Origin: Candidatus Omnitrophota bacterium
GTDB taxonomy: Bacteria; Omnitrophota; Gorgyraeia; Gygaellales; Profunditerraquicolaceae
DNA: 64,000 nt
Direction of reading: 5' to 3'
Assembly (NCBI GenBank): GCA_018897555.1
Contig: JAHIKK010000034.1
Coordinates: forward strand, 4,527-68,526
Made by a program: the position numbers and the translations under genes. The notes beneath the pieces were generated by a model, which had not been told where the DNA came from, searched no databases, and saw nothing but the letters and a program-made list of their open reading frames with translations. Positions 4,614 to 39,143 of this stretch are shown in pieces (position 1 is the first letter of the stretch; each line of letters begins with the position of its first letter).

Positions 4614-5012
4614 ACAGGCAGAATGTGGCTGCCCGCCACGGATTTAGTGGCGGGAGGAAAGTCCGGGCTCCAGAGGATAACGTAACGGGTAATTTCCGTC
4701 CTGTATATGTGATGTATACAGAGGATTTCCGCCAGAAATTGGCGGATCCGCCATAATTTGTGGCGGAAGAGCCACAGAGACGAGTAGTTTCGCAGCTTAG
4801 AAGGTTGCGGGACGAGGTGAAACGCGGCAATCTCTACGTGGAGCAAGGTAGAATAGGAGATGAGCGCTGATCCAGCGCGTTTTCCGTTTTAAGCGGGAAG
4901 CAATCTCGGGTAAACTGCTAAAGTTACCGCGGTAACGCGGGAATTGAGAGGAATAGCCACTAATCGATGCGCGAATTCGCATCAAGACAGAACCCGGCTT
5001 ATTCTGCCTGTT
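4614..5012 (+). ncRNA. rnpB: RNase P RNA (bacterial type A)
   Basis: Contains GGAGGAAAGTCCGGGCTCCA (P4 5' strand) and ACAGAACCCGGCTTA (P4 3' strand). P1 pairing is caggcagaat/attctgcctg. Length is about 400 nt. Confidence 0.9.
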
Positions 5013-5109
5013 TTAAATAATAATAAAGTAAAGTAATGTTCCCCCCTCGCGGGAGCTCGGGGTCAATTTTCCCCAAACGCCGGAGGCTGGGGAAAATTGA
5101 GGAGGAGTT

Positions 5110-14035: not shown

Positions 14036-14607
14036 GTTTAAACAAGAAGTCCGTAATCCGTGATTGGGCTGAATCAATTATTATCGCCTTTTTATTGGCT
14101 TTAGTCATCCGTACTTTCCTGGTGCAGGCCTTTAAGATCCCTACCGGAAGCATGCGCATGACTTTAATTGAAGGGGACTTGATCCTGGTGAATAAATTTA
14201 TTTATGGGGCAAAAATTCCTTTTACTAACTTGCGCCTGCCCGCGCTCAAGCCTCCCAAAAGAGGGGATGTGATTGTTTTTATTTATCCGGAGGATAAGAG
14301 CAAGGATTTTATTAAAAGGCTGGTGGGGTTTCCCGGAGATGTGGTTGAAATTAAAGGCGGCTCAATTTATATTAATGATAAACCCGCTCCGGAGGCGATA
14401 TTTAACCAGATTTATTATTACAATCGGGGCCAATTGGATGCACCGGGCCAAAAGATGGTTGTGCCTAAAGACAGCTACTTTGTTTTAGGGGATAATTCCG
14501 CTACTTCTAAAGATAGCCGTTATTGGGGGTTTGTGCCCAAAAATAATTTACTTGGGCAGGCGATAATTATCTATTGGCCGCTACAGCGCATAAAATTAAT
14601 TAAATGA
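14032..14607 (+). CDS. lepB: Signal peptidase I
   Basis: GSMRMTLIEGD (Ser box) and GDNSATSKDSRYWGFVP box. The start is set at the internal ATG at 14032 rather than the ORF-track start at 13942, which overlaps lepA. Confidence 0.85.
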   Translation: MSLNKKSVIRDWAESIIIAFLLALVIRTFLVQAFKIPTGSMRMTLIEGDLILVNKFIYGAKIPFTNLRLPALKPPKRGDVIVFIYPEDKSKDFIKRLVGFPGDVVEIKGGSIYINDKPAPEAIFNQIYYYNRGQLDAPGQKMVVPKDSYFVLGDNSATSKDSRYWGFVPKNNLLGQAIIIYWPLQRIKLIK

Positions 14608-15167
14608 ATATTGCCAATAAAATCTCAACCTTTCGCATTTTAAGCGTTCCATTTTTTATTGCTTGCCTATTATATTATGCGCCGGAAAGGGCATATTTAA
14701 AAAATTTGGCTTTGGCTATATTTGTACTGGGGGTTATTTCTGATGGTTTAGACGGCTATATCGCCAGGAAGGCTAAAATGCAATCAACAGCAGGATTAAT
14801 TTTAGACCCCCTGGGAGACAAGCTTTTGTTAATGAGTGCCTTTATATTTTTATCGCCGGTTTGCCGGTTGGGATTAAAATTTCCGCTTTGGGTGAGTTTT
14901 ATCGTGATTTCCCGGGACCTGATTATCATCATTGGGGCGATAGTTATCTACATGGTTAAGCAGAATTTATCTGTGCATCCCACTAAATGGGGTAAACTGA
15001 CCACTACTTTTCAGATGCTTTCGGTGATTAGTGTTTTATTGCAATGGAAGCTGGCGATGTTGGTCTGGTGGCCGGCGGTAATCTTTACGGTTATTTCAGG
15101 GATAGATTATGTAAAGAGAGGGTTCAAAATTTTATATGCTGTTGACAATCGCCGCGCTATTAATTAG
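14604..15167 (+). CDS. pgsA: CDP-alcohol phosphatidyltransferase (CDP-diacylglycerol--glycerol-3-phosphate 3-phosphatidyltransferase-like)
   Basis: DGLDGYIARK...ILDPLGDKLL matches the CDP-OH phosphatidyltransferase motif. Multi-pass membrane protein. Confidence 0.8.
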   Translation: MNIANKISTFRILSVPFFIACLLYYAPERAYLKNLALAIFVLGVISDGLDGYIARKAKMQSTAGLILDPLGDKLLLMSAFIFLSPVCRLGLKFPLWVSFIVISRDLIIIIGAIVIYMVKQNLSVHPTKWGKLTTTFQMLSVISVLLQWKLAMLVWWPAVIFTVISGIDYVKRGFKILYAVDNRRAIN

Positions 15168-15777
15168 CTATCTAATCGGTTCCATTCCTACGGCTTATCT
15201 TTTTGGCAGGGTGTTAAAAGGAATTGATATCCGTAAAGTTGGTTCAGGTAATGTTGGCGCCACTAATGCCTTGCGCGTTTTAGGTAAAGGGCCGGGAATC
15301 ACAGTACTGATTATAGATATACTTAAGGGGTTGATCGTAGTTTCCTTCCTGGGAGATTATTTTAAGTATAAAGAGATTTTATGGCAGGTAGAAAACTTAC
15401 GTATTATCATGGGGTTATGCTGTATTTGTGGCCATAACTGGACGATATTCTTACAGTTTAAGGGTGGCAAAGGGATTGCTACATCTTTAGGGGTACTGCT
15501 GGGGCTGGCTTTGAGAATAAATGGATTAAATATTGTAATTGGTATACTAATTACAATCTGGTTTGCGGTTTTTTTTCTTTTCAGGATTGTCTCATTAGCT
15601 TCGATAATTGCGGCTATAGGACTGCCGGCAGCTTGCATATTTTTTAAGCAGTCGCTTCTTATGATTACTGTATCTTTGGTACTTTGTATTTTAGTAATTA
15701 TCCGTCATAAGGCTAATCTGCTCAGGATCTTCCAAGGTAAAGAACCCCGTCTCAATTTTAAAAAATCCCCTAGTTAA
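15136..15777 (+). CDS. plsY: Glycerol-3-phosphate acyltransferase PlsY
   Basis: GSIPTAYLFGR...GSGNVGATNALRVLG signature. Confidence 0.85.
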   Translation: MLLTIAALLISYLIGSIPTAYLFGRVLKGIDIRKVGSGNVGATNALRVLGKGPGITVLIIDILKGLIVVSFLGDYFKYKEILWQVENLRIIMGLCCICGHNWTIFLQFKGGKGIATSLGVLLGLALRINGLNIVIGILITIWFAVFFLFRIVSLASIIAAIGLPAACIFFKQSLLMITVSLVLCILVIIRHKANLLRIFQGKEPRLNFKKSPS

Positions 15778-16322: not shown

Positions 16323-19300
16323 TTATTCTAGATAAATTTCTATCTTCTTAATTTGGCGTGACCTTATTTCCTGGGCATAGGGTGAGGGTATAACTGAGGA
16401 ATTAAACTCTACGGGTTTATCCGGATCCTGGATAATAATTTTTTTAATGCTGGCCGCATTTTTTCCGAAAGTATTTTTCCTTTTAGGATTATGATAGGTT
16501 ACTTGAATTTGGCTTAAGAAATTAAAAGAATACTCTCCGTTTTTATCAAATAACCAACCCGCAAGACTGGGCTTAAAGGTTAAATTAAGCTCGCCGGTTT
16601 CATTCAATGAAAATGGGCTTAGCCCGGTATTCATCAATAGCCAGATATGTACGAATTCCGCGGTTGAACCGGAGAGTCTGGCTACAAAGCCGTTCCCATG
16701 TAATTTCTTATCGGCAAAAGCGCTGCTAACCAGGAAAGAGGAGTTTTCCAATATGCTGCGTCCGTAGTTTTGCGGATTTTGGAAAGGAATAAGTACGTTT
16801 TTAAATTCGGCATAAAACTCTTCCGTCAAGCCGGCTTTAAGCAGTTCCAGGATATACTTATACTCCATATGTAACCAGATGGATTCATTCTCCAGCCAGC
16901 CCGGGCTAAATATCCTGCATCTGCCGATCTCTTCCGGCATGGCATTAAGCGGAGCGGTTACTTTGTACATCTTTAGTTTTTTATCAAAAAGCGCGCTCTG
17001 CTTAGTTGCTTTGTGCAGAGCTAAGCTTTGCTGGTGATCATCAGTGAGCCTTAAGGCATGTACTTGCCCTTCCAGAAACAGAGGGGCGGGCTTTTGATTA
17101 AATCTTTTCGGTTTTAGGTTATGCTCCCCGAGCAGGTCATATTCTGTAACTTCGTTAATAAAGTATGCGTTGTAGAGGCCCTGGGTTTTGTCAAAAGCCT
17201 TATTTAATCCGCAGTCTACTTTTTTTAGTGCCGCATCTAGAAAACTGATAAGTTTATCCGCCGGAAAATTAGTCAGGGCACCGGAAAAACCCAAAAGAGT
17301 ATTATGCCGGTAATTTTCTTTTAGGGTATTGCTTTTATCCCAATAAGAGAATGCGTCTTCTGAAAATAAGCTGGAGAGTTTTTCGATGAAATTAGCTATT
17401 TCTTCGGCAAGCTCGATATCTTTAATTGGGGAGTTTTCTAAAGCCGCCTTTAGCATTTTAAGCAGGCGCTTTAATTCAAAGGTTTCACAGGTGGATGAAC
17501 CAAAAAGGGCAGGCAGCCCGTTGAGTGAATCAAACCAGTTAGGTTTATTGGCTTCCATTTCAATGCCTACGCCGGAGGCATCTAAAGAGGCCAGTTTATT
17601 TACCGCCAAACATAAAAGTTTAGCCGCCAGCGTAGTGTAATGAATTTGGCCTTCCCCGTGAAGTGTCCTTAAAAGATGCGGATTAATCAGGCGTTTGCGC
17701 AGCATTTCTTTTTTATTGCTGTCTAGTGAAAGGGAGTGTAATTGGCGCGCCTGGCCGTTATGCAGGATATATTTTTCACTCCGCGGCTTGACTATTTCCG
17801 CGTTATCGTAAAATGAGAAAACTTTTCTGGCAAAGAAGAGTTCATTGGCCTTCTCCGGATATAACCCCAGGTAACTATCGATTAAATCCAGATTATAAGC
17901 CCAGTGATCTGTCCAAAAACCTTCTCCATGCTCAGCCTCCTGTATTCTTAAAGCGCAAGGCAGGAGGAGATTCAGAAAATTATCAATTGATCCATTAAGC
18001 ATAATTTTGTTTTCTTCAATAAAAAAGATAAGTTCTCCCGGAGTAAAGGGTTTTTTCAGGAAAGGGCTAAGGGTTTCTAAGCCATTTTTTTTAACTACCG
18101 TTTGCAGCAGTTTTTCTAAATCCAGGTTATCGCGGACCAGAAAGCTTTCCGGCTTTACTACCAGTGGATTAAAACCATCCGCCTGGATTAAATTCATAAA
18201 GAAAATAATATTTTCATCCTGGATCTGTGGGTTAAACCAAAGGTCATTGCGGCGGTTTTGATTTGTGTCCCGGTAGTTACCGTTACCCTGGGAAAAATAC
18301 GTGGGTTGCAGCTGAAAGTTGTTATAGTCTCTTTCTAAGTCACCGTGTTTGCGTGAATAAAGATAGAAGATAATCTTGGTGAATTCCGATGCCTCCCCGG
18401 AAGGTTTAAGGGCGGGGCGGGAAAAAACTTCCGGATAGCCGCCGCGCATAATGTTATCTAAATAAGTCTGTCCGGCGTATAAATTAAACTCCGCGGAACT
18501 GCTTTTAGTTAAGATATCATTTTTTAGTTTTTCAATTAACTCTTTGTTTTGGCGCAGCTTATTCTGAATATAGCCTACTGAACTGATTCTTTTAATCGAG
18601 CGATTTAAGGTCTTGCTGTCTCGCGACTGGCCAATCACTGCGTAAAATGTTTTCTGTTGGTTTGGTTTTAGCTTTAGGTCCATTAAGAGTAAGGCGCTGG
18701 GGGTTTTGCTCTGGGTTATTTGCTCAGCCGGGTATAAAAATTTAGGCTTAGCTAAAAATTCAGCCGGATAAGAGAAATCCGTTACCGCGCCGAAAACAAC
18801 CTGCGGATCAACTATGGGTTTAAGCAATTGGGTTTTTTCGCCTTTGAAATGGAACCCCAGATAAAAATTCCCCGCGTCAATATGCACGACTTCGGGCCGG
18901 TCAGCAGGGTCAACCTCAAGCTTATAAAAGGGGACAGAATTTTTTAGGTTATCAATTTTCATCCAGGCCTCAATGGTCCGCCCGAGTTTTTTTAGGAAAA
19001 AATTGTTTACGCCAAAAGGGACAATTTGCGGTAATCCATCAATAAGCTGCAGGGATTTAGGTTTATTGCCGGTATTTTCTATAGTTACTGTCCGGCTTAA
19101 GCCGGCATAAGTATCATTGGGTATGTTAAAGTATTGAATCCGGGTTTTAATTCCCAGCGTGCGATTCTCTTCCTCCAGGATAAGCTCAGCAGAACTTATG
19201 CGCAGAGAATTGATTATTTGGTACTTTAGATTCCCGTAGCCATTATGGAATGGTTCGTAATAAATAGATTTGGATTTACCGGATTTAATCTTGATAAAAG

Positions 19301-19565
19301 TGCGGAATCCATGGCTAGAAACGAACTGCCAGGATTTGTTAGCCGGGAAGAACTCTAAGATAGCGTGGTCTTTATCCTTGGTGCCGAAACTACAGATGCA
19401 TTGCCCGCGATTAACATAGAAAACCCACATGGGGATCCCGTATTTTCCGGCAATCCCCGGGAAGAAATTAGCAAAAGGCTTGGCGTAATTGTAGTTTTCA
19501 ATCACAAATTCGCCTTGTTTATTTAAATAATACTTGGTTTTTAATGGGTCGGTTTTTGTTTTCAT
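16323..19565 (-). CDS. Large (1080 aa) hypothetical protein, possibly a GH94-superfamily-like glycoside phosphorylase/hydrolase
   Basis: Long uninterrupted ORF with its own promoter-like sequence. The motif GNGNYRDTNQN resembles the catalytic G-x-G-D-W-N-D motif region of GH94/GH149-type phosphorylases. The size matches GH149/GH161 enzymes. Only weak motif-level support. Confidence 0.35.
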   Translation of the reverse strand: MKTKTDPLKTKYYLNKQGEFVIENYNYAKPFANFFPGIAGKYGIPMWVFYVNRGQCICSFGTKDKDHAILEFFPANKSWQFVSSHGFRTFIKIKSGKSKSIYYEPFHNGYGNLKYQIINSLRISSAELILEEENRTLGIKTRIQYFNIPNDTYAGLSRTVTIENTGNKPKSLQLIDGLPQIVPFGVNNFFLKKLGRTIEAWMKIDNLKNSVPFYKLEVDPADRPEVVHIDAGNFYLGFHFKGEKTQLLKPIVDPQVVFGAVTDFSYPAEFLAKPKFLYPAEQITQSKTPSALLLMDLKLKPNQQKTFYAVIGQSRDSKTLNRSIKRISSVGYIQNKLRQNKELIEKLKNDILTKSSSAEFNLYAGQTYLDNIMRGGYPEVFSRPALKPSGEASEFTKIIFYLYSRKHGDLERDYNNFQLQPTYFSQGNGNYRDTNQNRRNDLWFNPQIQDENIIFFMNLIQADGFNPLVVKPESFLVRDNLDLEKLLQTVVKKNGLETLSPFLKKPFTPGELIFFIEENKIMLNGSIDNFLNLLLPCALRIQEAEHGEGFWTDHWAYNLDLIDSYLGLYPEKANELFFARKVFSFYDNAEIVKPRSEKYILHNGQARQLHSLSLDSNKKEMLRKRLINPHLLRTLHGEGQIHYTTLAAKLLCLAVNKLASLDASGVGIEMEANKPNWFDSLNGLPALFGSSTCETFELKRLLKMLKAALENSPIKDIELAEEIANFIEKLSSLFSEDAFSYWDKSNTLKENYRHNTLLGFSGALTNFPADKLISFLDAALKKVDCGLNKAFDKTQGLYNAYFINEVTEYDLLGEHNLKPKRFNQKPAPLFLEGQVHALRLTDDHQQSLALHKATKQSALFDKKLKMYKVTAPLNAMPEEIGRCRIFSPGWLENESIWLHMEYKYILELLKAGLTEEFYAEFKNVLIPFQNPQNYGRSILENSSFLVSSAFADKKLHGNGFVARLSGSTAEFVHIWLLMNTGLSPFSLNETGELNLTFKPSLAGWLFDKNGEYSFNFLSQIQVTYHNPKRKNTFGKNAASIKKIIIQDPDKPVEFNSSVIPSPYAQEIRSRQIKKIEIYLE

Positions 19566-24983: not shown

Positions 24984-25945
24984 TTGTTTTAGGAATTGAG
25001 AGCTCTTGCGATGAAACCGGGGTGGCTGTGGTTAAGAATGAAAGAAAAATTTTAGCGAATGTCATTGCCTCTAGCCTAAAATTACATAGCCGCCATGGCG
25101 GGGTGGTTCCGGAGATTGCCTCGCGTATGCAGTTGGAAAGTATCGCCGGCATATTTACTGAGGCAATGCAGATCGCTAAAATTAAGCCTGCGCAGATTGA
25201 CCTGGTTGCGGTTACCACTCATCCGGGTTTACCCGGGTCACTGATAACGGGGATCGCATTTGCCAAAGCACTGGCTTTAAGCTTAGGCAAGCCGATACTG
25301 GGGGTTAATCATATTCATAGCCATATTTATGCCAATCTTCTTTACCCTGAGAAGATTAAATTGCCGGCTGTAGCTTTAGTAGTTTCCGGTGGACATACCT
25401 CTCTTTTTTATCTAAAGGATTTTTCTAAAATCCAGGTATTGGGGCAAACCCGCGATGACGCCTGCGGTGAGGCTTTTGATAAGGTAGCCAAGATTATGGG
25501 GTTGGGTTATCCCGGAGGGCCGTTAATTGAAAAAATAGCTCGAGGTGGAAATGAGCATAAAATTAAGTTTGCTTGTTGGGGAAATACTGAGCTGGATTTT
25601 AGTTTCAGTGGTATAAAAACCGCGGTTTTATATTATTTAAAGGATAAAAAACCCGGCAGTAAATTGCTCAAAGACCTGGCTGCTTCTTTTCAAGAGAGTG
25701 CCGTCAATGTTTTAGTAAAAAAATCCCTGCTTGCCTGTAAACGAAAAAAGGTTAAGCATCTTTTAATCGGCGGCGGGGTGGCGGCCAACGGAGTTTTGCG
25801 TCAAAAATTAATGGCAAGCGCTAAAGCTGCAGGAATTAACTGTTTTTTTCCGAATATTGATCTGTGCATGGATAATGCGGCGATGGTTGCCGGCCTGGGA
25901 GGTTATCTTTATAAGCGCGGCGCAAGGAACGATTTTAAAAACTAG
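24980..25945 (+). CDS. tsaD: tRNA N6-adenosine threonylcarbamoyltransferase
   Basis: MIVLGIESSCDETGVAVV start and HSHIYA metal site. Confidence 0.9.
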   Translation: MIVLGIESSCDETGVAVVKNERKILANVIASSLKLHSRHGGVVPEIASRMQLESIAGIFTEAMQIAKIKPAQIDLVAVTTHPGLPGSLITGIAFAKALALSLGKPILGVNHIHSHIYANLLYPEKIKLPAVALVVSGGHTSLFYLKDFSKIQVLGQTRDDACGEAFDKVAKIMGLGYPGGPLIEKIARGGNEHKIKFACWGNTELDFSFSGIKTAVLYYLKDKKPGSKLLKDLAASFQESAVNVLVKKSLLACKRKKVKHLLIGGGVAANGVLRQKLMASAKAAGINCFFPNIDLCMDNAAMVAGLGGYLYKRGARNDFKN

Positions 25946-25989
25946 GGACCGTTTCTATTTTTCTTTTTAGAAAAATAGAAACGGTCCCT
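25944..25989. repeat. Palindromic repeat copy C, starting at the tsaD stop codon
   Basis: TAGGGACCGTTTCTATTTTTCT-tttt-AGAAAAATAGAAACGGTCCCT. Confidence 0.85.
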
Positions 25990-26009: not shown

Positions 26010-26456
26010 ATGCCTACGGACGGACAAATGATTGTACGTTTATTATTAACTTTGGTTTTAAGCGGTTTAATCGGCCTGGAAAGGCAGGTGCACCGCAGAG
26101 ATGCCGGCCTGCGCACGCATATATTAGTCGCTTTAGGTAGCTGCCTTATCATGTTGACATCTCTGTATGTTTTTGATATATATAAAGCTCAGGTGGCCTT
26201 AGACCCCGTACGTATTGCTGCGGGAGTAGTTACCGGTATTGGTTTTCTTGGCGCCGGTACAATCATCCGTGAATCCGATGGAGTTAAGGGCTTGACCACG
26301 GCGGCTAGCCTATGGGTGGTTGCGGGTATTGGTTTAGCGGTGGGGGTGGGTTTTAATAAAATCGCACTTTATACCACAATTTTGGTTTTAATTGTTTTAC
26401 ATTTTTTACGCTTTGTAGAAGTGCCACTTTCAAAGGAGGGTAAACATGGCCTTTAA
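26010..26456 (+). CDS. MgtC/SapB family membrane protein
   Basis: LSGLIGLERQ...AGLRTHILVALGSCLIM motif with 4-5 predicted TM helices. Confidence 0.75.
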   Translation: MPTDGQMIVRLLLTLVLSGLIGLERQVHRRDAGLRTHILVALGSCLIMLTSLYVFDIYKAQVALDPVRIAAGVVTGIGFLGAGTIIRESDGVKGLTTAASLWVVAGIGLAVGVGFNKIALYTTILVLIVLHFLRFVEVPLSKEGKHGL

Positions 26457-26949
26457 AAAGAACCTGGAGGAAAAAACGCTGGATGTCGATGCCGCAATGC
26501 AAGGGACCTTAAGCTTTAAGGATCCGGTTAATCTGCGGATTAACGGAAAATTTGAAGGCCATCTGGATACCCGGGGAAATTTGACTATCGGCACTTCGGC
26601 GGTAATCAACGCGGATATCGTGGGAGATAATATTATTATTGGCGGCCGGGTTACGGGCAAGATTACGGCTAAAGAAAGGCTTACCTTGCTTCCGCAGGCG
26701 ATAGTAGAAGGGCATATCTATCCGGCAAAACTTAATATTACCGAAGGCGCGGTTTTCCAGGGACAGTGCACAATGCTGCATGATTTTCTTAATTCGGAAC
26801 AACTGGCTAAATACCTGGAGGTAGAATTAGGCTCGGTCATGGAATGGGCTAATTCCGGAAAAGTGCCGGCAAGTAAAGAAAATAACGACTGGAAATTTGA
26901 ACGTAAAGCCATAGATTCCTGGGTAGCAACAGGCAAAATCGCAAAATAA
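26446..26949 (+). CDS. Bactofilin-domain protein with C-terminal excisionase-type helix-turn-helix extension
   Basis: Beta-helical bactofilin repeats (NLTIGTSAVINADIVGDNIIIGGRVTGKITAKERLTLLPQAIVEGHI...), then LNSEQLAKYLEVELGSVMEWANSGKVPASKENNDWKFERKAIDSWV, which resembles HTH_17. Confidence 0.65.
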   Translation: MAFKKNLEEKTLDVDAAMQGTLSFKDPVNLRINGKFEGHLDTRGNLTIGTSAVINADIVGDNIIIGGRVTGKITAKERLTLLPQAIVEGHIYPAKLNITEGAVFQGQCTMLHDFLNSEQLAKYLEVELGSVMEWANSGKVPASKENNDWKFERKAIDSWVATGKIAK

Positions 26950-26964: not shown

Positions 26965-27276
26965 ATGACTGAAGAAAAAATGCTTACTGTTAGAGATGTA
27001 GCCACTATGTTAGGAGTCTCAGAAAAAGATGTTTTGGATCTGACTGAGAATGGGACGATTCCGGGTTATAAGGTAGGAGGCGTATATCTAAGATTTAAGA
27101 AGGAGCAGGTTGAACAATATAAGAAGAATCAAAGTCATCTGGCGCCTAAGGCGGCTAAAGGAGAATCCGAAGGCTTAGGCAGCAGGATCCATGACTTCTT
27201 TTATTTCAATGATTTTTATATCTTTGCCCTGATCCTCATCGTCCTTTTAGGATATCTGGTTTACCGGGGCCTTTAG
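26965..27276 (+). CDS. Excisionase-family HTH DNA-binding protein with C-terminal transmembrane anchor
   Basis: [49 protein letters not shown], and a hydrophobic C-terminus ([17 protein letters not shown]). Confidence 0.6.
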
Positions 27277-27280
27277 AGCG

Positions 27281-27952
27281 ATGACTGCGGGTAAGGGGTT
27301 TTGTGATTTAGGGTTTGCCAAAATTGATACCGCCAGAAAGAAACGAAAAGGATTCGCGGAAGTTATTTATTGCCCGGGAAAAAATCGCCTGCACTTAAAG
27401 GAAATTGCTAAAAAAATAATTGCTTCCCGGGAAGACCTGCTTTTAACCAAACTGGATAAAACTACATTCTCCTTCTTAAAGAAAAAAATCCCTGTTTTAA
27501 AATATAATCCTTTGGCAAAAATCGGTTATTATTTAACCAAACCCAAAACCCTCTCTAAAGGTTTAGTGCTGGTGGTTTCTGCCGGAACAGCGGATATTCC
27601 GATAGCTGAAGAAGCGGTGCAAACCCTGCTGGTTATGGGTAATCGGGTCGAGAGGCTCTATGATGTAGGCGTAGCCGGAGTGCACCGCCTGATGAATAAT
27701 ATTGATAAATTAAGAAAGGCGCAAGTCATTGTGGTAGTGGCAGGCATGGAAGGAGCTTTAGCCAGTTTAGTCAGCGGATTAGTCAAGGCGCCGATTGTGG
27801 CTGTACCGACTAGCTGTGGATATGGATCCAGCTTTTCCGGGCTGGCCGCGCTGCTCACCATGCTCAATGGCTGCTCGCCGGGAGTAAGCGTAGTAAATAT
27901 TGATAACGGATTTGGGGCAGGTTATTTTGCCAGCTTAATCAACAGGAAATAA
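27281..27952 (+). CDS. larB: LarB-like (PurE-like) nickel-pincer cofactor biosynthesis carboxylase
   Basis: [19 protein letters not shown] matches the LarB-type N-terminal motif. The C-terminal domain is PurE-like ([10 protein letters not shown]). Confidence 0.55.
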
Positions 27953-27954
27953 TT

Positions 27955-29286
27955 ATGGCGCTTTCGGGTCTGGATATTTATAAATTATTGCCTAAAACAA
28001 ATTGCCGCCAGTGTGGTTTTGCCACCTGCCTGGCTTTTGCCATGCAGCTGGCCAAGAAAACAGTGGCGATTGAAAAATGCCCTTTTATTTCGCCGGAGGC
28101 TAAAAGTATTTTGGAAGCCCAGGCATTGCCGGCGATTAAATTAATTACTTTAGGCAGCCAGGAATCGAAATTTGATATTGGTAATGAAACGGTAATGTTC
28201 AGGCACGAAGAGAAATTCCGTAATCCGGCGGGAGTTGGTTTTATTATTGAGGATGGCCTAAGCGACACCGAAATAAGAGAGCGGCTTAGGAAAATTAATC
28301 AATTAAAATTCGAACGCGTAGGCCAACAGCTAAGCGTTAATCTGGTTGCCCTAAAGCAAAATAAGGATGCCTCCAGGTACCTGGAGGCGGTGAAATTGCT
28401 TCTGGATAATACAACTTTGCCGATGATGCTGATGAGCAAGGATTTGGCTGCTTTAAAACAAGCGGTAATTATCAGCCAAGAGCGTAAGCCGCTGCTTTAT
28501 TCCGCGCAACAGGAAAATTTCGCGCAAATCGGTGCTTTAGCTAAAGAATTTCAGCTGCCTTTGGTAGTAATGGCGCAGGATATTGACCAACTCCGCCGGC
28601 TGACCAAAGAACTTAACGGCTTAGGAGTAAACGAACTGATTTTAGATACCGGAATAAAGCCTTTGGCGGATAAAATCTGGGATTTAACCCAACTCCGCCG
28701 GCAGGCGCTGAAGAGATCAAATCGCGCATTGGGTTATCCCACCCTGGCCATCGTTGAGCAAACTGACCCTTATCTAGAGGCAATGGAGGCAGGCGCTTAT
28801 ATCGCTAAATATGCGGGATTAGTTTTGATTAAGGGATGGTCTAGTTGGGAAGTCCTTTCAATTTTGACCTTGCGGCAAAATATTTATACTGATCCGCAGA
28901 AACCTTTACAGATTGATCCTAAGCTTTACTCCGTTGGGCAGGTAAACCGGGATTCTCCGGTTCTGGTTACCACTAACTTTTCTTTAAGTTATTATACTGT
29001 TTTAGGAGAGGTAGAGGCCAGTAAAATACCCGCATACATCTTAAGCGTCGATACCCAGGGCATGTCTGTGCTTACGGCCTGGGCCGCGGAAAAATTTAAT
29101 GCCGAGGCAATTACAAAATCATTAGAAACCTGCGGGGTAAAAGAGGTAATCCGGCATAAGGATTTAATTATTCCCGGTTATGTTGCCATGATCAGCGGAG
29201 ACCTCCAAGATCAATCAGGGTTTAGAATAATTGTCGGCCCTAAAGAAGCAGCCGGGATCCCCGCGTTTTTAAAAAAACTTAATTAA
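27955..29286 (+). CDS. acsC: Corrinoid iron-sulfur protein large subunit (acetyl-CoA decarbonylase/synthase gamma subunit)
   Basis: N-terminal LDIYKLLPKTNCRQCGFATCLAFAMQLAK [4Fe-4S] motif, a TIM-barrel domain and a C-terminal corrinoid-binding domain. About 443 aa. Confidence 0.85.
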   Translation: MALSGLDIYKLLPKTNCRQCGFATCLAFAMQLAKKTVAIEKCPFISPEAKSILEAQALPAIKLITLGSQESKFDIGNETVMFRHEEKFRNPAGVGFIIEDGLSDTEIRERLRKINQLKFERVGQQLSVNLVALKQNKDASRYLEAVKLLLDNTTLPMMLMSKDLAALKQAVIISQERKPLLYSAQQENFAQIGALAKEFQLPLVVMAQDIDQLRRLTKELNGLGVNELILDTGIKPLADKIWDLTQLRRQALKRSNRALGYPTLAIVEQTDPYLEAMEAGAYIAKYAGLVLIKGWSSWEVLSILTLRQNIYTDPQKPLQIDPKLYSVGQVNRDSPVLVTTNFSLSYYTVLGEVEASKIPAYILSVDTQGMSVLTAWAAEKFNAEAITKSLETCGVKEVIRHKDLIIPGYVAMISGDLQDQSGFRIIVGPKEAAGIPAFLKKLN

Positions 29287-29302
29287 AGTTAAATTTTAAT
29301 TT

Positions 29303-30931
29303 ATGCAAAAATTTAAGGTTACATTTCTTCCTGATCATTTAACGATTACTGCGGAAAAGGATAGCTCCATTCTTACCGCGGCTATCTCCGCGGGGATTTA
29401 TCTTAATTCTAACTGCGCCGGAGATGGAACTTGCGGCGGATGCAAGGTGATCGTTAATCAGGGGCAAGTCAAAAGCCAACCCAACGGAATAATCACCGCG
29501 CAAGAGAAAAAAAATAATCTCTATTTGGCCTGTTTGACCGCTATCCAGAGTGATTTAGAGATTTTAATACCGGATAGTTCACGGATGGATAAAGATATCC
29601 AAACCGATAACTTAGGAGGCGATGCTACGATTGAACCCGGGGATACTCTAGGTAAAAACTTCGGGCTTTGTTTTGATATCGGCACGACGACAATTTCCGG
29701 ACAGCTGGTAAATCTGAATTCAAAAAAAATCCTGGGAACCAAAACCGCTTATAACCGGCAGGCTGCTTTTGGCAGTGATGTAATTACGCGGATTGTCTAT
29801 GCGGCTAAAACCGGCGGTTTAGAAAAATTACATAACGCCCTTAGCGGTACGATGAATCAAATTATCCGGGAGTTAGTCAGCGAGCATAAGGTTGATCTTA
29901 ATGCTGTTAACTGTATTGTTTGTTCGGGAAATACGACGATGATGCATCTGCTTTTAAGCCTGGATCCGGCGCATATCCGCCGGCAGCCGTATGTTCCTCC
30001 GGCAAATTTTCCGTCGGTTTTGCGCGCCGCGGAAGCAGGGATACAGATTAGCCCTCAAGGACTGCTCAGTTGCGTTCCCGGAGTTTCCGGTTATCTGGGC
30101 GGGGATGCAATCGCCGGAGTCTTATCCAGCGGCATATATCAAAAAGAAGAGACCTGTATTTTAATTGATATCGGGACAAACGGAGAGATTGTCTTAGGTA
30201 ATCGGGATTTTCTGGTCGCCTGCGCGGGATCGGCCGGGCCGGCTTTTGAAGGCAGCGGGGTAACCAGCGGCATGCGCGCCTCCAGCGGGGCAATTCAAAA
30301 AGTAAGTATCAATAAAAATGATTTTAGCGTTAAGTATTCGACGATTCAGGATAAAATACCCCGGGGGATTTGCGGATCAGGTTATATTGATTTACTCAGC
30401 GAAATGTTAACCTCCGGAATAATCGATAAAAGTGGAAAGATCAAGGTTACGGGTAAACGCATCCGCTCTAGCGATAATGGCCGGGAATTTGTGGTTTGTT
30501 TTAAAGAAGAGATCCGGGCGCAAGCGGATATTGTGATTAACGAGGCAGACATTGAAAATCTTAAGCGTTCTAAGGGAGCGATATATTCAGCTTGCGCTAT
30601 TTTAGTTAAACATTTAGCTTTGGAATTTTCTGCTATCTCGAAGATATTTATTGCCGGTGGGTTCGGTACCTACCTGGATATCGAAAAAGCAATCCGCATC
30701 GGATTATTGCCGGATTTAGAGCGTTCTAAATTTATTTTTATCGGGAATAGTTCTTTGGCCGGCTCCCGGGAAATACTTTTATCCAGCCAGGCTCAGGCGA
30801 TGGCGGAGGCGCTTGCTTTAAAGATTACTTATTTTGAATTATCGATGGACTCAGACTATATGGAAGAATATAGCCAGGCGTTATTTTTCCCGCATACAGA
30901 TTTGACTAAGTTTCCTACGGTGAAATTTTAA
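29303..30931 (+). CDS. Reductive activase of corrinoid iron-sulfur protein (RACo; 2Fe-2S ferredoxin + ASKHA ATPase)
   Basis: N-terminal plant-type ferredoxin (CAGDGTCGGCKV) followed by an ASKHA-fold domain. Conserved position between acsC and acsD. Confidence 0.75.
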   Translation: MQKFKVTFLPDHLTITAEKDSSILTAAISAGIYLNSNCAGDGTCGGCKVIVNQGQVKSQPNGIITAQEKKNNLYLACLTAIQSDLEILIPDSSRMDKDIQTDNLGGDATIEPGDTLGKNFGLCFDIGTTTISGQLVNLNSKKILGTKTAYNRQAAFGSDVITRIVYAAKTGGLEKLHNALSGTMNQIIRELVSEHKVDLNAVNCIVCSGNTTMMHLLLSLDPAHIRRQPYVPPANFPSVLRAAEAGIQISPQGLLSCVPGVSGYLGGDAIAGVLSSGIYQKEETCILIDIGTNGEIVLGNRDFLVACAGSAGPAFEGSGVTSGMRASSGAIQKVSINKNDFSVKYSTIQDKIPRGICGSGYIDLLSEMLTSGIIDKSGKIKVTGKRIRSSDNGREFVVCFKEEIRAQADIVINEADIENLKRSKGAIYSACAILVKHLALEFSAISKIFIAGGFGTYLDIEKAIRIGLLPDLERSKFIFIGNSSLAGSREILLSSQAQAMAEALALKITYFELSMDSDYMEEYSQALFFPHTDLTKFPTVKF

Positions 30932-30945
30932 AGGGGAGAGCAAAT

Positions 30946-31887
30946 ATGGAAACACAATTAGTGCTGGAGAAATGGCCGGGAGTAGTTTCGACGGTAGTTA
31001 TCGGAGCGAAAAAAGAAGCGGGTGGTTCGCGCGGCAATACTGTAACCATTGGCGGGCAAAACAGTTTACCTTTATTATTTAAAGAGGGAGCTATTCCCCA
31101 TAAACCCATAATTGCTTTTGAAATCTGGGATATTGCCCCGCAAGACTGGCCGGATGAGCTGATTTCTGCTTACGGAAAAGCCATAAATGACCCCTTGGCC
31201 TGGGCGGAAAAATGCGTAAATGAATTTAAAGCAGAATTACTCTGCGTAAAAATGCAGGGAACGCATCCTGATTTTGGCAATAAAAGCCCTGAAAAAGCGG
31301 CAAAGTTTATTTCTTTATTATTAAGTAAGGTTAGGGTTCCTTTAATTATTATCGGAAGCGGGGATGACGCCAAAGATAACCTGATTCTGCCGGCTTGTTC
31401 AGAGGCAGCCAGGGGAGAGCGTTGCCTGATAGGTTGCGCGGTACAAGATAATTATAAAACTTTAGTGGCCAGCGTATTAGCTGACGGCCATAGTATTATT
31501 GCTGAAAGCCCGATAGATATTAATATTGCCAAACAGTTAAATATTTTAATCTCCGACATGGGATTAAGCTTGGAGCGCATTGTAATTAATCCGACGATCG
31601 GAGCATTAGGGTATGGCCTGGAATACGCTTATTCCATTATGGAGAGGGCCAGGCTGGCTGCTTTGTCCGGAGATAAAACTTTAGCTTCACCGTTTATTTG
31701 TTTTATCGGCCAGGAGGCCTGGAAGTCCAAAGAGGCAAGAGTCAGTGTTGAACAGGGAATTATCTGGGAAGCGCTTACCGCCACCAGCCTGATTCAATCC
31801 GGAACGGACCTTTTGATTATGCGCCACCCTCAAGCCGCGCAAAAAGTAAATAATTATATAGAAAATTTATTCAAGGACAAGGAGTAG
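30946..31887 (+). CDS. acsD: Corrinoid iron-sulfur protein small subunit (ACDS delta subunit)
   Basis: 313-aa TIM-barrel protein in the acsC-acsD-acsE gene order. Confidence 0.8.
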   Translation: METQLVLEKWPGVVSTVVIGAKKEAGGSRGNTVTIGGQNSLPLLFKEGAIPHKPIIAFEIWDIAPQDWPDELISAYGKAINDPLAWAEKCVNEFKAELLCVKMQGTHPDFGNKSPEKAAKFISLLLSKVRVPLIIIGSGDDAKDNLILPACSEAARGERCLIGCAVQDNYKTLVASVLADGHSIIAESPIDINIAKQLNILISDMGLSLERIVINPTIGALGYGLEYAYSIMERARLAALSGDKTLASPFICFIGQEAWKSKEARVSVEQGIIWEALTATSLIQSGTDLLIMRHPQAAQKVNNYIENLFKDKE

Positions 31888-31889
31888 AG

Positions 31890-32678
31890 ATGTTTATCAT
31901 TGGTGAGTTAATTAACGGAATGTACACGAATATCGCTTTGGCGCTTAAGGATCACGACAAAAAAATCGTGCAGACTTGCGCGTTAGAACAAATTGCCAGT
32001 GGCGCGGATGCCCTGGATGTATGCTGCGGGCCGGCTTCCCAAAATCCCTTAATCGATATGCCCTGGCTGGTGGAGGTAATTCAGGAGGTAACCGATAAAC
32101 CGCTTTGCCTGGATTCCAGTAAGCCTAAAGTTATTGCCGAAGGCCTAAAAGCTGCTAAAAATAAAACGATAATTAATTCTACGACCGCCGATGCGGAAAA
32201 GTTAGAGATACTTATTCCGCTGGCTAAAAAATATAAATCTAAGCTCATCGGAATAACCATCAGCGCCGCAGGTATACCCCAGAATAAAGATCAACGCCTG
32301 GAGTTAGCGGCAATAATCCTTACGCATGCCACTGATGGAGAATTTCCCATTACCGATTTGTATCTTGACCCAATCGTTATGCCGGTGAATGTAGCTCAAG
32401 GCCAAATTAAAGATATCCTGTTAACCATTGCTGAGCTTAAAATAATCTCCGAGCCTAGCCCGAAAACAATTATCGGCTTAAGCAATATTTCTCAAGGCGC
32501 GAAAGTGCGCAGCCTGATTAACCGCACATTTTTGACAATGGCAGTTGCATCCGGATTAGATTCTGCTATACTTGACCCTAAAGATAAAGAGCTGATGGAC
32601 ACCTTAATTACCGCAGAGCTTATCTTAAATAAAAATATTTATTGCGATTCGTATTTAGAGGCTTATCGAAAAAAGTAA
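31890..32678 (+). CDS. acsE: Methyltetrahydrofolate:corrinoid/iron-sulfur protein methyltransferase (pterin-binding)
   Basis: Pterin-binding fold (IIGELINGMY...LDVCCGPA...). 262 aa. Confidence 0.8.
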   Translation: MFIIGELINGMYTNIALALKDHDKKIVQTCALEQIASGADALDVCCGPASQNPLIDMPWLVEVIQEVTDKPLCLDSSKPKVIAEGLKAAKNKTIINSTTADAEKLEILIPLAKKYKSKLIGITISAAGIPQNKDQRLELAAIILTHATDGEFPITDLYLDPIVMPVNVAQGQIKDILLTIAELKIISEPSPKTIIGLSNISQGAKVRSLINRTFLTMAVASGLDSAILDPKDKELMDTLITAELILNKNIYCDSYLEAYRKK

Positions 32679-32687
32679 GAGAAGTTT

Positions 32688-32761
32688 GACGGCGTAGCTC
32701 AGCCTGGTAGAGCAAGCGGCTCATACCCGCTCGGTCAGTGGTCCAACTCCACTCGCCGTCA
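32688..32761 (+). tRNA. tRNA with anticodon CAU and non-canonical T-loop (TCCAACT, C at position 55)
   Basis: Perfect 7-bp acceptor GACGGCG/CGCCGTC, canonical D-arm, anticodon loop CTCATAC. The T-loop departs from the T-Psi-C consensus. Followed by a T-run. Confidence 0.65.
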
Positions 32762-33001
32762 CTTTTTTATTTTGGATATTGTGTTTTAGAGTAATTGGGG
32801 CTAGTAAAATTAAACAGAAGAGGATAAGCCATAAAAAATTCAATATAAAATAATATCTAACTTATTGTAATACAACAAGTTACAATCCTTCCGAAAAAGA
32901 ATTTCTCTCCGTACTTGAAAAGCCCTCCGGGATATGTTACATTTAATCTTAATGTGTTTTACAGCCAGTAATACAAAATATCTATTGCAAGGAGAAGGTA
33001 A

Positions 33002-35002: not shown

Positions 35003-35962
35003 ATGAACAAATTCATGGAAACAATTAAAAAATACAACCTGATCCAACCAGGGGATAAAATCCTGATCGGAGTTTCCGGAGGGCCGGATTCACTGGCGTT
35101 ACTCTTGAAACTTTTTAGCCTGAAATCCAAGTTCGGCTTAACTTTACATATCGCGCATTTGGATCATGGTTTACGTAAGGACTCCGGCGCGGATGCGCTT
35201 TTTGTAAAACGCTGGGGCCAAAAGCTTAACCTCCCCGTAACCATAAAACAGCTGCCTTACCCGCTGGTTAAAGCCAAAGGCTCTTTAGAAGAATTCTTCC
35301 GGGAAGAAAGATTAAAATTTTTTAGGCAAACTGCAAAAACCATAAAAGCGGATAAGATTGCCTTGGGGCACAATCTTGACGATCAAGCCGAAACGGTGTT
35401 GATGCGCCTGTTACGCGGTACCGGTTTATCCGGTTTATCCGGAATATCCGCCAAAAGAGAGATCCGGGGTGTAGTGTTTATCCGGCCATTCCTGGAAACC
35501 CCGCGCCGCCAAATCGATAAATTTTTAAAGAACAGGGGGATAAAACCACGCCTTGACTCTACTAACCGGGAAGATATCTTCCTGCGCAACAAGATCCGTC
35601 ATCAATTAATTCCTTTGCTTAAGGCTAAATATAATATTAACATCCTAAAGGTATTGGCTAACCTGGCCCAAAGTGTTTCCTATGATTATGAATATCTGGA
35701 TCAGGCTGCTAAACGCGCCTTAAAAGGCAACCCCTCGCGGCTTAATCTTAAAAAAATCATGAAATTGCATCCGGCAATCCTGCGCCTCAAACTGCGCCAA
35801 TCCATATCTTCTATCCAGGGAGATACGCGCAGAATAAGCTTTCAGCATATCAAAGAGCTTGAGGATTTAATTTTTGCCCGTCCGCGCGGTTCAATTGTGG
35901 ATTTGCCCAAAGGAATATTTGTGCAAAAATCCCGCAACAGCCTGCTTTTCTTAAAGCGCTAA
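35003..35962 (+). CDS. tilS: tRNA(Ile)-lysidine synthetase
   Basis: ILIGVSGGPDSLALL PP-loop motif. Confidence 0.85.
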   Translation: MNKFMETIKKYNLIQPGDKILIGVSGGPDSLALLLKLFSLKSKFGLTLHIAHLDHGLRKDSGADALFVKRWGQKLNLPVTIKQLPYPLVKAKGSLEEFFREERLKFFRQTAKTIKADKIALGHNLDDQAETVLMRLLRGTGLSGLSGISAKREIRGVVFIRPFLETPRRQIDKFLKNRGIKPRLDSTNREDIFLRNKIRHQLIPLLKAKYNINILKVLANLAQSVSYDYEYLDQAAKRALKGNPSRLNLKKIMKLHPAILRLKLRQSISSIQGDTRRISFQHIKELEDLIFARPRGSIVDLPKGIFVQKSRNSLLFLKR

Positions 35963-37940: not shown

Positions 37941-39143
37941 ATGCGTATTTTCCGATTTAGCTGCTCAGAGGAAGTAAGTAAAATTATGCGTGAGATTGGT
38001 GTTGATCCTTACGGGATCAAGATCATGCTGCCCAAGGCGAGTACCTTTTTAATCCGCGCCAACGCCGTTAATAACATCGCGGCGAATATCCTTAAGCAAG
38101 AGATGCTTTCTTTGGGAGCAGACGCGGCAATTGCCAGAGGCGCGCTTACCGGTAAAACTAAAAAAACCGATGTTCTTTTGATCGGAGAACTTACCCAGTT
38201 TGTTGCTTTGGCCAATAAATTAAAAATTCAGCCATTTGGCCTGCAAAAGCTGGCGGGAGAGTTAGACGAAAATATCAAAAATTTTACTAAAGACGATTTT
38301 ATCCTATCTTTAAGAAAAGGTTATTTGAATCTTAGTAAAAAAACTCAAATAATGGGTATTATTAATTTAACGCCTGACTCATTCAGCGATGACGGCCTAT
38401 ATCGAAAGTTTAGTAATAACTATCCGGATCTGGCTTTAAAGAAAGCGCGGGCATTAGTGGCTGACGGAGCAGATATTCTTGATCTCGGCGGCCAATCCAG
38501 CCGTCCGGGAGCAAAAAACATCAGCGTAAAAGAAGAATTATGCCGCACTATACCGGTAGTCAAACTGTTGGCAAAAAAAATCAATACGCCGATTTCTATT
38601 GATACGACTAAACCCGAAGTAGCCAAGGCGGCTTTAGATGCCGGCGCGCAAATCATTAATGATATCTGCGGATTAAGTGACAAACGTATGATTAAAGTGG
38701 CTGCCCGATATAAAGCCGCGGTGGTAATTATGCACATGCTGGGAAAACCCGCAAATATGCAAAAAATAATTGCTTATGAATCTTTGATCGAAGATATTGC
38801 TACATACCTTAAGAATGCTATTGCTTCTGCGCAGGCAGGCGGAATTAGCCCGGATAAAATTATTATTGATCCGGGTATAGGTTTTGGTAAAACCCCGGAT
38901 GATAATCTTAAAATCATCAAACACCTGGCAGATTTTAGGGCCTTAGGCAAGCCCATACTTATCGGCCCTTCCAGGAAATCTTTTATCGGGGAAGTTCTAA
39001 AATTAAATTCGCCAAGCCGGATTAACGGCACTTTGGCTGCCTGCGTAATGGCTGCCGAACGCGGCGTAAATATCCTGCGCGTGCATGATGTAAAAGAAGT
39101 AAGCCAATCCTTAAAAATGGCGGAGGCGGTAAAAAAATGTTAG
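37941..39143 (+). CDS. folP: Dihydropteroate synthase with ~120-aa N-terminal extension of unknown function
   Basis: C-terminal 270 aa is a pterin-binding DHPS (INLTPDSFSDDG...LDLGGQSSRPG...IIDPGIGFGK). The N-terminal extension is not a recognisable FolK or FolB. Confidence 0.8.
   Translation: MRIFRFSCSEEVSKIMREIGVDPYGIKIMLPKASTFLIRANAVNNIAANILKQEMLSLGADAAIARGALTGKTKKTDVLLIGELTQFVALANKLKIQPFGLQKLAGELDENIKNFTKDDFILSLRKGYLNLSKKTQIMGIINLTPDSFSDDGLYRKFSNNYPDLALKKARALVADGADILDLGGQSSRPGAKNISVKEELCRTIPVVKLLAKKINTPISIDTTKPEVAKAALDAGAQIINDICGLSDKRMIKVAARYKAAVVIMHMLGKPANMQKIIAYESLIEDIATYLKNAIASAQAGGISPDKIIIDPGIGFGKTPDDNLKIIKHLADFRALGKPILIGPSRKSFIGEVLKLNSPSRINGTLAACVMAAERGVNILRVHDVKEVSQSLKMAEAVKKC

Follow-up and report, generated by a model that had tools for sequence, protein, structure and literature searches.

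A Wood-Ljungdahl corrinoid methyl-transfer module located behind larB and apart from CODH/ACS genes in Candidatus Omnitrophota

The 64,000-nucleotide (nt) stretch of Candidatus Omnitrophota DNA analyzed here in full (GenBank assembly GCA_018897555.1, contig JAHIKK010000034.1; hence, the window) carries at positions 27281 to 32678 a tight codirectional array of five genes, larB-acsC-RACo-acsD-acsE, with a tRNA(CAU) gene at its end. These encode, next to a LarB of nickel-pincer cofactor synthesis, both subunits of the corrinoid iron-sulfur protein (CFeSP), its reductive activator, and its methyltransferase, that is, a methyl-transfer module of the Wood-Ljungdahl pathway. The cluster is real and, as judged from sequence, its proteins are ordinary and well understood. 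Its setting, detached from CO dehydrogenase/acetyl-CoA synthase (CODH/ACS) throughout a lineage, appears to be undescribed as far as our literature searches found. We consider the most likely partner of the module to be an acetyl-CoA synthase whose gene lies at a different locus, with the pathway being split and not lost (probability, about 0.5). What is said of the energy metabolism of the Omnitrophota, which are abundant but ultra-small and uncultured, is deduced from lists of genes, and in published surveys this family is scored with a "partial Wood-Ljungdahl pathway." In the largest order of the phylum, the corrinoid module appears to be a unit physically detached from CODH/ACS, fixed behind nickel-cofactor genes, and under stepwise reduction.

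The five open reading frames (ORFs) are separated by intergenic gaps of 2, 16, 14, and 2 nt:

27281..27952, + strand: larB, 223 amino acids (aa); NF033503, 280 bits against a cutoff of 175
27955..29286, + strand: acsC, CFeSP large subunit, 443 aa; NF003195, 554 bits against 306
29303..30931, + strand: RACo (acsV/orf7 type), ATP-dependent reductive activator of corrinoid protein, short form, 542 aa; Fer2, Raco_middle, and RACo_C_ter domains
30946..31887, + strand: acsD, CFeSP small subunit, 313 aa; NF003376, 385 bits against 280
31890..32678, + strand: acsE, methyl-tetrahydrofolate (methyl-H4folate):corrinoid/iron-sulfur protein methyltransferase, 262 aa; PRK07535, 301 bits against 259

The position that an initial annotation of this DNA had given for the cluster thus agrees to the base, and its identifications of acsC, RACo, acsD, and acsE are right, with the curated cutoffs passed in each case except that of RACo, which is identified by its Pfam domains; likewise, the cluster begins after LarB (27281 to 27952) and ends at a tRNA(CAU) gene (32688 to 32762), as that annotation had it. 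AcsC aligns over its full length with the structure 2H9A (E = 7.5e-132) and retains the [4Fe-4S] motif (Cys17, Cys20, Cys25, and Cys42); with its C-terminal B12 domain aligned throughout, we infer that it binds the corrinoid and accepts the methyl group. AcsE matches 2YCI and 2E7F with E values of ~2e-75 and is homologous to the pterin-binding module of MetH. Asp75, Asn96, Asp160, Asn199, and Arg207 are all present when read off a gap-free structure alignment, and we take the first four to be the pterin-binding residues in Moorella numbering. In RACo, the 2Fe-2S ferredoxin (PF00111), middle (PF17651), and ASKHA ATPase (PF14574) domains are all matched, and the protein aligns with residues 1 to 104 and 196 to 630 of 3ZYY (E = 2.3e-144). 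The linker of ~91 residues between the ferredoxin and middle domains (residues 105 to 195 of 3ZYY) is missing, and the linker domain PF17650 is not matched, which is why RACo falls below the NCBIfam AcsV cutoff (573 versus 800 bits). Relatives have a RACo of 640 to 645 aa, and PF17650 is present in those of loci L085, L088, and L179 (L numbers denote the loci compared); the short form recurs in L006, L009, and L049. By sequence, AcsE carries the complete set of pterin-binding and catalytic residues, AcsC and AcsD are canonical CFeSP subunits, and RACo retains both the 2Fe-2S and the ASKHA domain. Each of the five ORFs is intact, the cofactor and catalytic residues that we checked are kept, and an identical AcsC occurs in three groundwater metagenome-assembled genomes (MAGs; GCA_022013145.1, GCA_018897095.1, and GCA_018895635.1) and in Logan assemblies.

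The absence of acsA and acsB from the 64-kb window, also claimed in the initial annotation, was borne out by three kinds of search. Pfam searches of all of the large ORFs in the window yielded no CODH/ACS, and tblastn with Omnitrophota AcsB, CODH, AcsF, MTHFR, and FolD found no match in the window. Profile hidden Markov models (HMMs), each seeded with 6 to 114 sequences, recovered no AcsB, CODH, AcsF, LarC, MTHFR, or FolD (best score, <8 bits) from the six-frame translation of the window plus 10 kb upstream and 1.9 kb downstream, or ~76 kb around the locus. CODH/ACS genes immediately outside the window, which that annotation had named as a way in which it might fail, were sought and not found in either flank. 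We rejected a location just upstream, where the 10 kb (from L094) holds genes for LptD, UDP-glucose dehydrogenases, epimerases, CvpA, NIF3, DnaG, and RpoD, and one just downstream, where the gene for DnaE follows that for GuaA in the 1.9 kb and the HMMs are negative. A third candidate was the place that CODH-AcsB-AcsC occupies in other Omnitrophota, upstream of a CDP-OH transferase/PlsY pair; in the window this pair lies at 14604 to 15777 and is preceded by LepA-LepB. As for acsF, only 14 nt separate RACo from acsD, and neither tblastn nor the HMMs matched it in the window.

A scan with one genome per species recovered at least 80 loci, the closest of which are all from Candidatus Omnitrophota, with AcsC identities of 87 to 53%. 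Two of these relatives, UBA1562 and GWF2_43_52, are placed in Velamenicoccia/Gygaellales (GTDB Koll11/GIF10) by Seymour et al., and from this similarity the organism of the window would belong to the same order. The block Sld-TsaD-MgtC-bactofilinHTH-HTH-LarB-AcsC-RACo-AcsD-AcsE-tRNA is found in at least 47 species genomes and many metagenome contigs, and LarB(+FmdE or LarC)-AcsC-RACo-(AcsF)-AcsD-AcsE within one housekeeping block is found at no fewer than 58 loci, at least 47 of them from species genomes. Among the loci whose upstream side was covered, AcsC is directly preceded by LarB in 29, by LarB plus an FmdE-domain protein in 23, by LarB plus LarC in 6, by AcsB in 30, and by something else in 6. 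The LarB-type layout is a lineage trait within the Omnitrophota, probably of the order Gygaellales. Most LarB-type loci have a CooC-type ATPase at the acsF position, i.e., the RACo-AcsD junction, with conservation like that of AcsC. At L014 (13999 to 15206), the CFeSP genes, RACo, and AcsF are kept and there is no acsE between acsD and the tRNA gene. The FmdE/LarC gene is also missing from the subclade of the window. The copy in the window is the most reduced version, as it lacks AcsF, any FmdE or LarC, and the linker of RACo.

Sister Omnitrophota have a full operon of the order FolD-MTHFR-(CooC)-CODH-Fdx-oxidoreductase-AcsB-AcsC-RACo-AcsF-AcsD-AcsE. A third layout (L074, L078, L079, L081, L082, and L097) has FolD-MTHFR-CooC-CODH-...-AcsB-AcsC directly followed by CDP-OH transferase, (Der), PlsY, and helicase genes, with no RACo, AcsD, or AcsE in the 10 kb around it; hence, the pathway is split there too, at another point. 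On a 1.87-Mb contig (Ga0209340_1000001; L143, 5724 to 11769), acsC-RACo-acsF-acsD-acsE is inserted in a tryptophan operon (TrpG-TrpD-TrpC-TrpF-PsbP-like, the module, and TrpB-TrpA), with neither larB nor CODH/ACS within 10 kb. As a separate observation, several omnitrophotan AcsB proteins contain an intein of ~549 aa (L053, 6164 to 9991; L052; L068; and clusters P0029, P0035, P0040, P0046, P0052, P0056, P0057, P0079, P0087, and P0095). Most of these inteins, including that of L053, also have a LAGLIDADG homing endonuclease domain, and the one in L053 splits the A-cluster cysteine motif (..FYSCTLC | CQSFAPNHVC..).

Neighbor joining of 118 AcsC sequences gave a tree in which the LarB-type loci make up a single clade of 77 inside the AcsB-linked Omnitrophota, and all of the Omnitrophota fall in one clade of 102. 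Mean branch lengths are alike (0.236 versus 0.21). Four loci with no LarB (L143, L035, L045, and L049) are nested inside the LarB-type clade and therefore represent secondary events. The ratio of nonsynonymous to synonymous substitution rates (dN/dS) against the closest relative, L005, is 0.08 for LarB, 0.19 for AcsC, 0.17 for RACo, 0.18 for AcsD, and 0.11 for AcsE, compared with 0.21 for TsaD, taken as a comparison gene; the five genes are under purifying selection comparable to that on tsaD. AcsC has no clade-specific fixed substitutions; of the 84 positions with a conservation of ≥95% in the other sequences, it retains 69. The low dN/dS values and the lack of clade-specific AcsC substitutions together indicate that the genes are functional and that their role has not visibly changed. 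We find it scarcely credible that the module is left over, decaying and without present function, from a Wood-Ljungdahl pathway that was lost. The stepwise reduction in the lineage of the window, where acsF, FmdE/LarC, and the linker of RACo are all gone, would suit such decay, but none of the five ORFs is broken, their catalytic and cofactor residues are present, their dN/dS values (0.08 to 0.19) do not exceed that of tsaD, and identical proteins recur in the three MAGs and the Logan assemblies. We therefore rejected a pseudogenized remnant on the dN/dS values.

In the reading that we favor, the module came down to the clade from an ancestor whose operon was the canonical CODH-AcsB-AcsC-RACo-AcsF-AcsD-AcsE. 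It was then separated from CODH/AcsB and fixed in a housekeeping array right behind larB, and in the lineage of the window acsF and the FmdE/LarC gene have been lost as well, together with the linker of RACo. By analogy with the characterized enzymes of Moorella and Carboxydothermus, AcsE is predicted to transfer the methyl group of methyl-H4folate to Co(I) of CFeSP and RACo to drive, with ATP, the re-reduction of accidentally formed Co(II); the split pathway could run toward acetyl-CoA or backward. The adjacency of LarB would most simply be inherited synteny with nickel-cofactor genes.

An ACS elsewhere is supported by the retention of the ATPase at the AcsF position in most LarB-type lineages. 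No role is known for the AcsF-type CooC ATPase other than the insertion of nickel into ACS. Moreover, L014 has no acsE at the locus, and ACS is therefore the only known methyl donor left for its CFeSP. The other split forms in the phylum (CODH-AcsB-AcsC with no nearby RACo, AcsD, or AcsE) argue for the same conclusion. Further support comes from Seymour et al. (2023; PMC10066038), according to whom the carbonyl branch of Profunditerraquicolaceae and related families is truncated, with AcsA and CooS/F missing, and operates via "AcsB-E."

Several observations weigh against an ACS at another locus. Neither AcsB nor CODH lies within 10 kb at any of the 58 LarB-type loci, and acsF is missing in seven lineages with the RACo-AcsD junction covered (L020, L022, L033, L039, L048, L049, and the window). 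Two AcsB searches of a collection of 5.8 billion proteins share 111 of 120 matches (~129 clusters together), and AcsC directly follows AcsB in six out of six independently sampled AcsB contexts. No listed AcsB cluster was traced to the long contigs that bear the module (100 to 704 kb and one of 1.87 Mb), where ~4 would be expected if AcsB were randomly placed in those genomes. As weak evidence, no assembly appears twice among the best 80 genome loci, i.e., there is no second AcsB-linked acs locus among the matches listed. Finally, Williams et al. (2021) give no Wood-Ljungdahl pathway for Gygaella obscura. The AcsB proteins of L058, L156, and L162 to L165 are only 62 to 65% identical to the queries; AcsB clades therefore exist outside both match lists, and the AcsB negatives are nonexhaustive.

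In the other of the two readings that the initial annotation had offered, the clade would have no ACS, and AcsE, CFeSP, and RACo would act as a stand-alone system passing methyl groups from methyl-H4folate via the corrinoid protein to a different acceptor, a possibility that we rate as less likely than a split pathway. The most plausible acceptor would be a methionine synthase of the MesB/core-MetE type, making the whole a multipart equivalent of MetH. The AcsB searches are negative at the window, in the flanks of the 58 loci, and for the long module-bearing contigs; the five-gene module moves as a unit with no CODH/AcsB (the trp operon of L143, L035, and L045); acsF has been lost repeatedly while the CFeSP genes remain constrained; and G. 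obscura has no Wood-Ljungdahl pathway listed. Methyl donation from CoFeSP to the MesB/MesC core methionine synthases has already been predicted by Price et al. (PMC7857596), and a core methionine synthase has been characterized by Deobald et al. with methylcobalamin as the donor (PMC7005905). However, no MesB or other acceptor (homocysteine-binding component) is seen in the window, MesB has so far been found only in organisms with acsBCD (PMC7857596), and the retention of AcsF in most relatives is left unexplained if there is no ACS. The missing acsE at L014, the AcsB-E that PMC10066038 ascribes to the family, and the incompleteness of the AcsB match lists also tell against it. The choice matters for the interpretation of the phylum: with ACS elsewhere, we are dealing merely with a split operon and the pathway calls stand, whereas with ACS absent, the acetogenesis predictions for the order would be wrong and CFeSP would have an ACS-independent job, e.g., feeding a core methionine synthase, that is so far only predicted.

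The LarB gene itself was examined for the possibility, raised in the initial annotation, that it is an ordinary PurE paralog. We rejected this, as the PurE model scores 29 bits against a cutoff of 150 and the catalytic Cys is present; the protein is a true LarB by NF033503 (280 bits against 175). It matches the structure of Lactiplantibacillus plantarum LarB (PDB code 7MJ0; E = 6e-65), with Cys198 aligned to the catalytic Cys221, and this Cys is invariant among 66 relatives. Residue 104 (27590 to 27592), equivalent to Ser127 of L. plantarum, is Ala; of the 66 sequences from the clade, 32 have Ala at this position, 33 have Ser, and 1 has Cys. An engineered S127A variant of LarB is reported to yield the dicarboxylated product in preference to side products of hydrolysis (PMC13524815).

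The same annotation had described LarB next to the acs genes as an unusual juxtaposition. The adjacency stands as real synteny, being seen at 58 or more loci, but it may be inherited, with the whole GatCAB-to-FtsH block conserved; a functional link between LarB and the acs genes remains an unproven lead. We consider it improbable that LarB, joined by LarC in the basal lineages, has a functional tie to the module, be it via a nickel-pincer enzyme in methyl chemistry or via nickel coregulation. Besides the recurrence of LarB upstream of AcsC at all of these loci, such coupling would account for the closest relatives of the L056 LarC among those whose context was examined, P0122 (59% identity) and P0132 (47%), which lie in larB-larC-acsC-RACo-acsF-acsD-acsE arrays whose stop and start codons overlap. 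The slot between larB and acsC otherwise holds the FmdE-domain protein (in the middle lineages, with a conserved HxH...C motif), a member of a family that binds Zn/Ni and usually neighbors metal transporters, and no other gene of the array is as constrained as that for LarB (dN/dS, 0.08). Furthermore, new nickel-pincer enzymes are now being found via lar adjacency (PMC13524815). As judged from these gene contents, LarB/LarC or FmdE plus AcsF would give the ancestral cluster a nickel-handling theme.

On the other hand, the GatCAB-CtpB-TsaD-MgtC-...-TilS-FtsH block is conserved as a whole and gene overlaps are frequent within it, and adjacency is therefore weak evidence. The module has been relocated with no larB in L143, L035, and L045, and L049 has lost larB in situ. 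No locus has larE or larA, AcsC has no clade-specific substitutions, and our literature search yielded no paper joining CFeSP and LarB. The PP-loop gene at 35003 to 35962 is tilS and not larE. By profile HMMs, LarC was not found in the ~76 kb around the locus, and it is adjacent only in basal relatives. No LarC match was traced to the long module-bearing contigs, which is a weak negative given the fast divergence of LarC (the L056 and L059 proteins are 43% identical). A further variant, in which there is no ACS and the methyl group passes to another nickel-dependent acceptor built or matured by LarB/LarC, FmdE, and CooC-like proteins, would amount to a new organometallic methyl-transfer route, and we think it very improbable. 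The larB-larC-acsC linkage nevertheless offers a concrete lead in the search for new users of the nickel-pincer cofactor.

The genes directly flanking the five described above continue the same array upstream and close it downstream:

25944..25989, no strand assigned: perfect hairpin with a 20-bp stem between tsaD and mgtC
26010..26456, + strand: mgtC-family gene (PF02308), first of the codirectional array, overlapping the next gene by 11 nt and conserved in the block
26446..26949, + strand: bactofilin plus HTH_17 fusion protein (PF04519 and PF12728), a candidate regulator
26965..27276, + strand: HTH_17 (excisionase/MerR-like) DNA-binding protein (PF12728 and TIGR01764), with its stop codon 4 nt before larB
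32688..32762, + strand: tRNA with a CAU anticodon (ARAGORN and Rfam), 10 nt after acsE, 3' boundary of the cluster

The three protein-coding genes that precede larB are joined by overlaps or gaps of ≤15 nt, and in L055 the HTH_17 gene overlaps larB by 4 nt. The bactofilin-HTH_17 fusion and the small HTH_17 gene stand directly 5' of larB in every LarB-type locus whose upstream side was covered. The closest relatives (L005, L006, and L112) retain the hairpin, with altered bases in each arm, and more distant ones lack it; it is possibly the 5' boundary of the transcription unit. Rfam gathering thresholds revealed no riboswitch or other known RNA control, and promoter and terminator scans gave background levels only. 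The tRNA(CAU) gene follows acsE in 22 of 24 related loci. It has a G1-C72 pair and is therefore no initiator tRNA; labeled Met and located upstream of tilS, it could be a tRNA-Ile2, the CAU anticodon of which is modified by TilS.

The remainder of the window is of a housekeeping nature, with genes for RpoD, RNase P RNA, RuvABC, aromatic amino acid synthesis, LepA, GatCAB, TsaD, TilS, FtsH, FolP, the threonine pathway, LeuA, a ValS/IleS-type synthetase, UvrB, GroEL, and GuaAB. The RNase P RNA (4614 to 5015) is of bacterial class A (Rfam, 154 bits). An ORF of 1,080 aa (16323 to 19565, - strand) has no Pfam match and is also a gene call in MAG records, and the dihydropteroate synthase (DHPS; 37941 to 39143) has an N-terminal extension of ~130 residues outside the DHPS model.

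The locus can be set against several known systems. The initial annotation had stand-alone modules of this kind known from a few anaerobes; the nearest documented case is Dehalococcoides mccartyi, in which the Wood-Ljungdahl pathway is incomplete but AcsB is kept. There, CFeSP has been proposed to serve methyl metabolism via MesB and not acetogenesis, and MetF and AcsE are absent (PMC7857596), whereas the locus in the window keeps AcsE and no AcsB was located. With the larA-larB-larC-larE genes of L. plantarum, the window shares an alike LarB (E = 6e-65, with the catalytic Cys), and in basal relatives LarC is likewise found beside LarB; the differences are that no locus has larE or larA, that the window has no larC, and that acs genes are the neighbors. 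In a comparison with MetH and its split forms, AcsE would correspond to the pterin module and CFeSP/RACo to the corrinoid and reactivation parts, the likeness being one of functional analogy only. In Moorella thermoacetica and Carboxydothermus hydrogenoformans, the canonical acs cluster has the order acsA-acsB-acsC-orf7/RACo-acsF-acsD-acsE and presents AcsC, RACo, AcsD, and AcsE in the same order, but the window lacks acsA, acsB, and acsF, has a RACo with no linker, and carries the genes in a housekeeping array behind larB. Within the phylum, the full operon Fhs-FchA-FolD-MetF-CooC-CODH-Fdx-oxidoreductase-AcsB-AcsC-RACo-AcsF-AcsD-AcsE of the nearest AcsB-linked relatives (e.g., L060, L085, and L088) encodes an AcsC 52 to 56% identical to that of the window, the clade of which keeps only the part from AcsC onward, in another genomic neighborhood.

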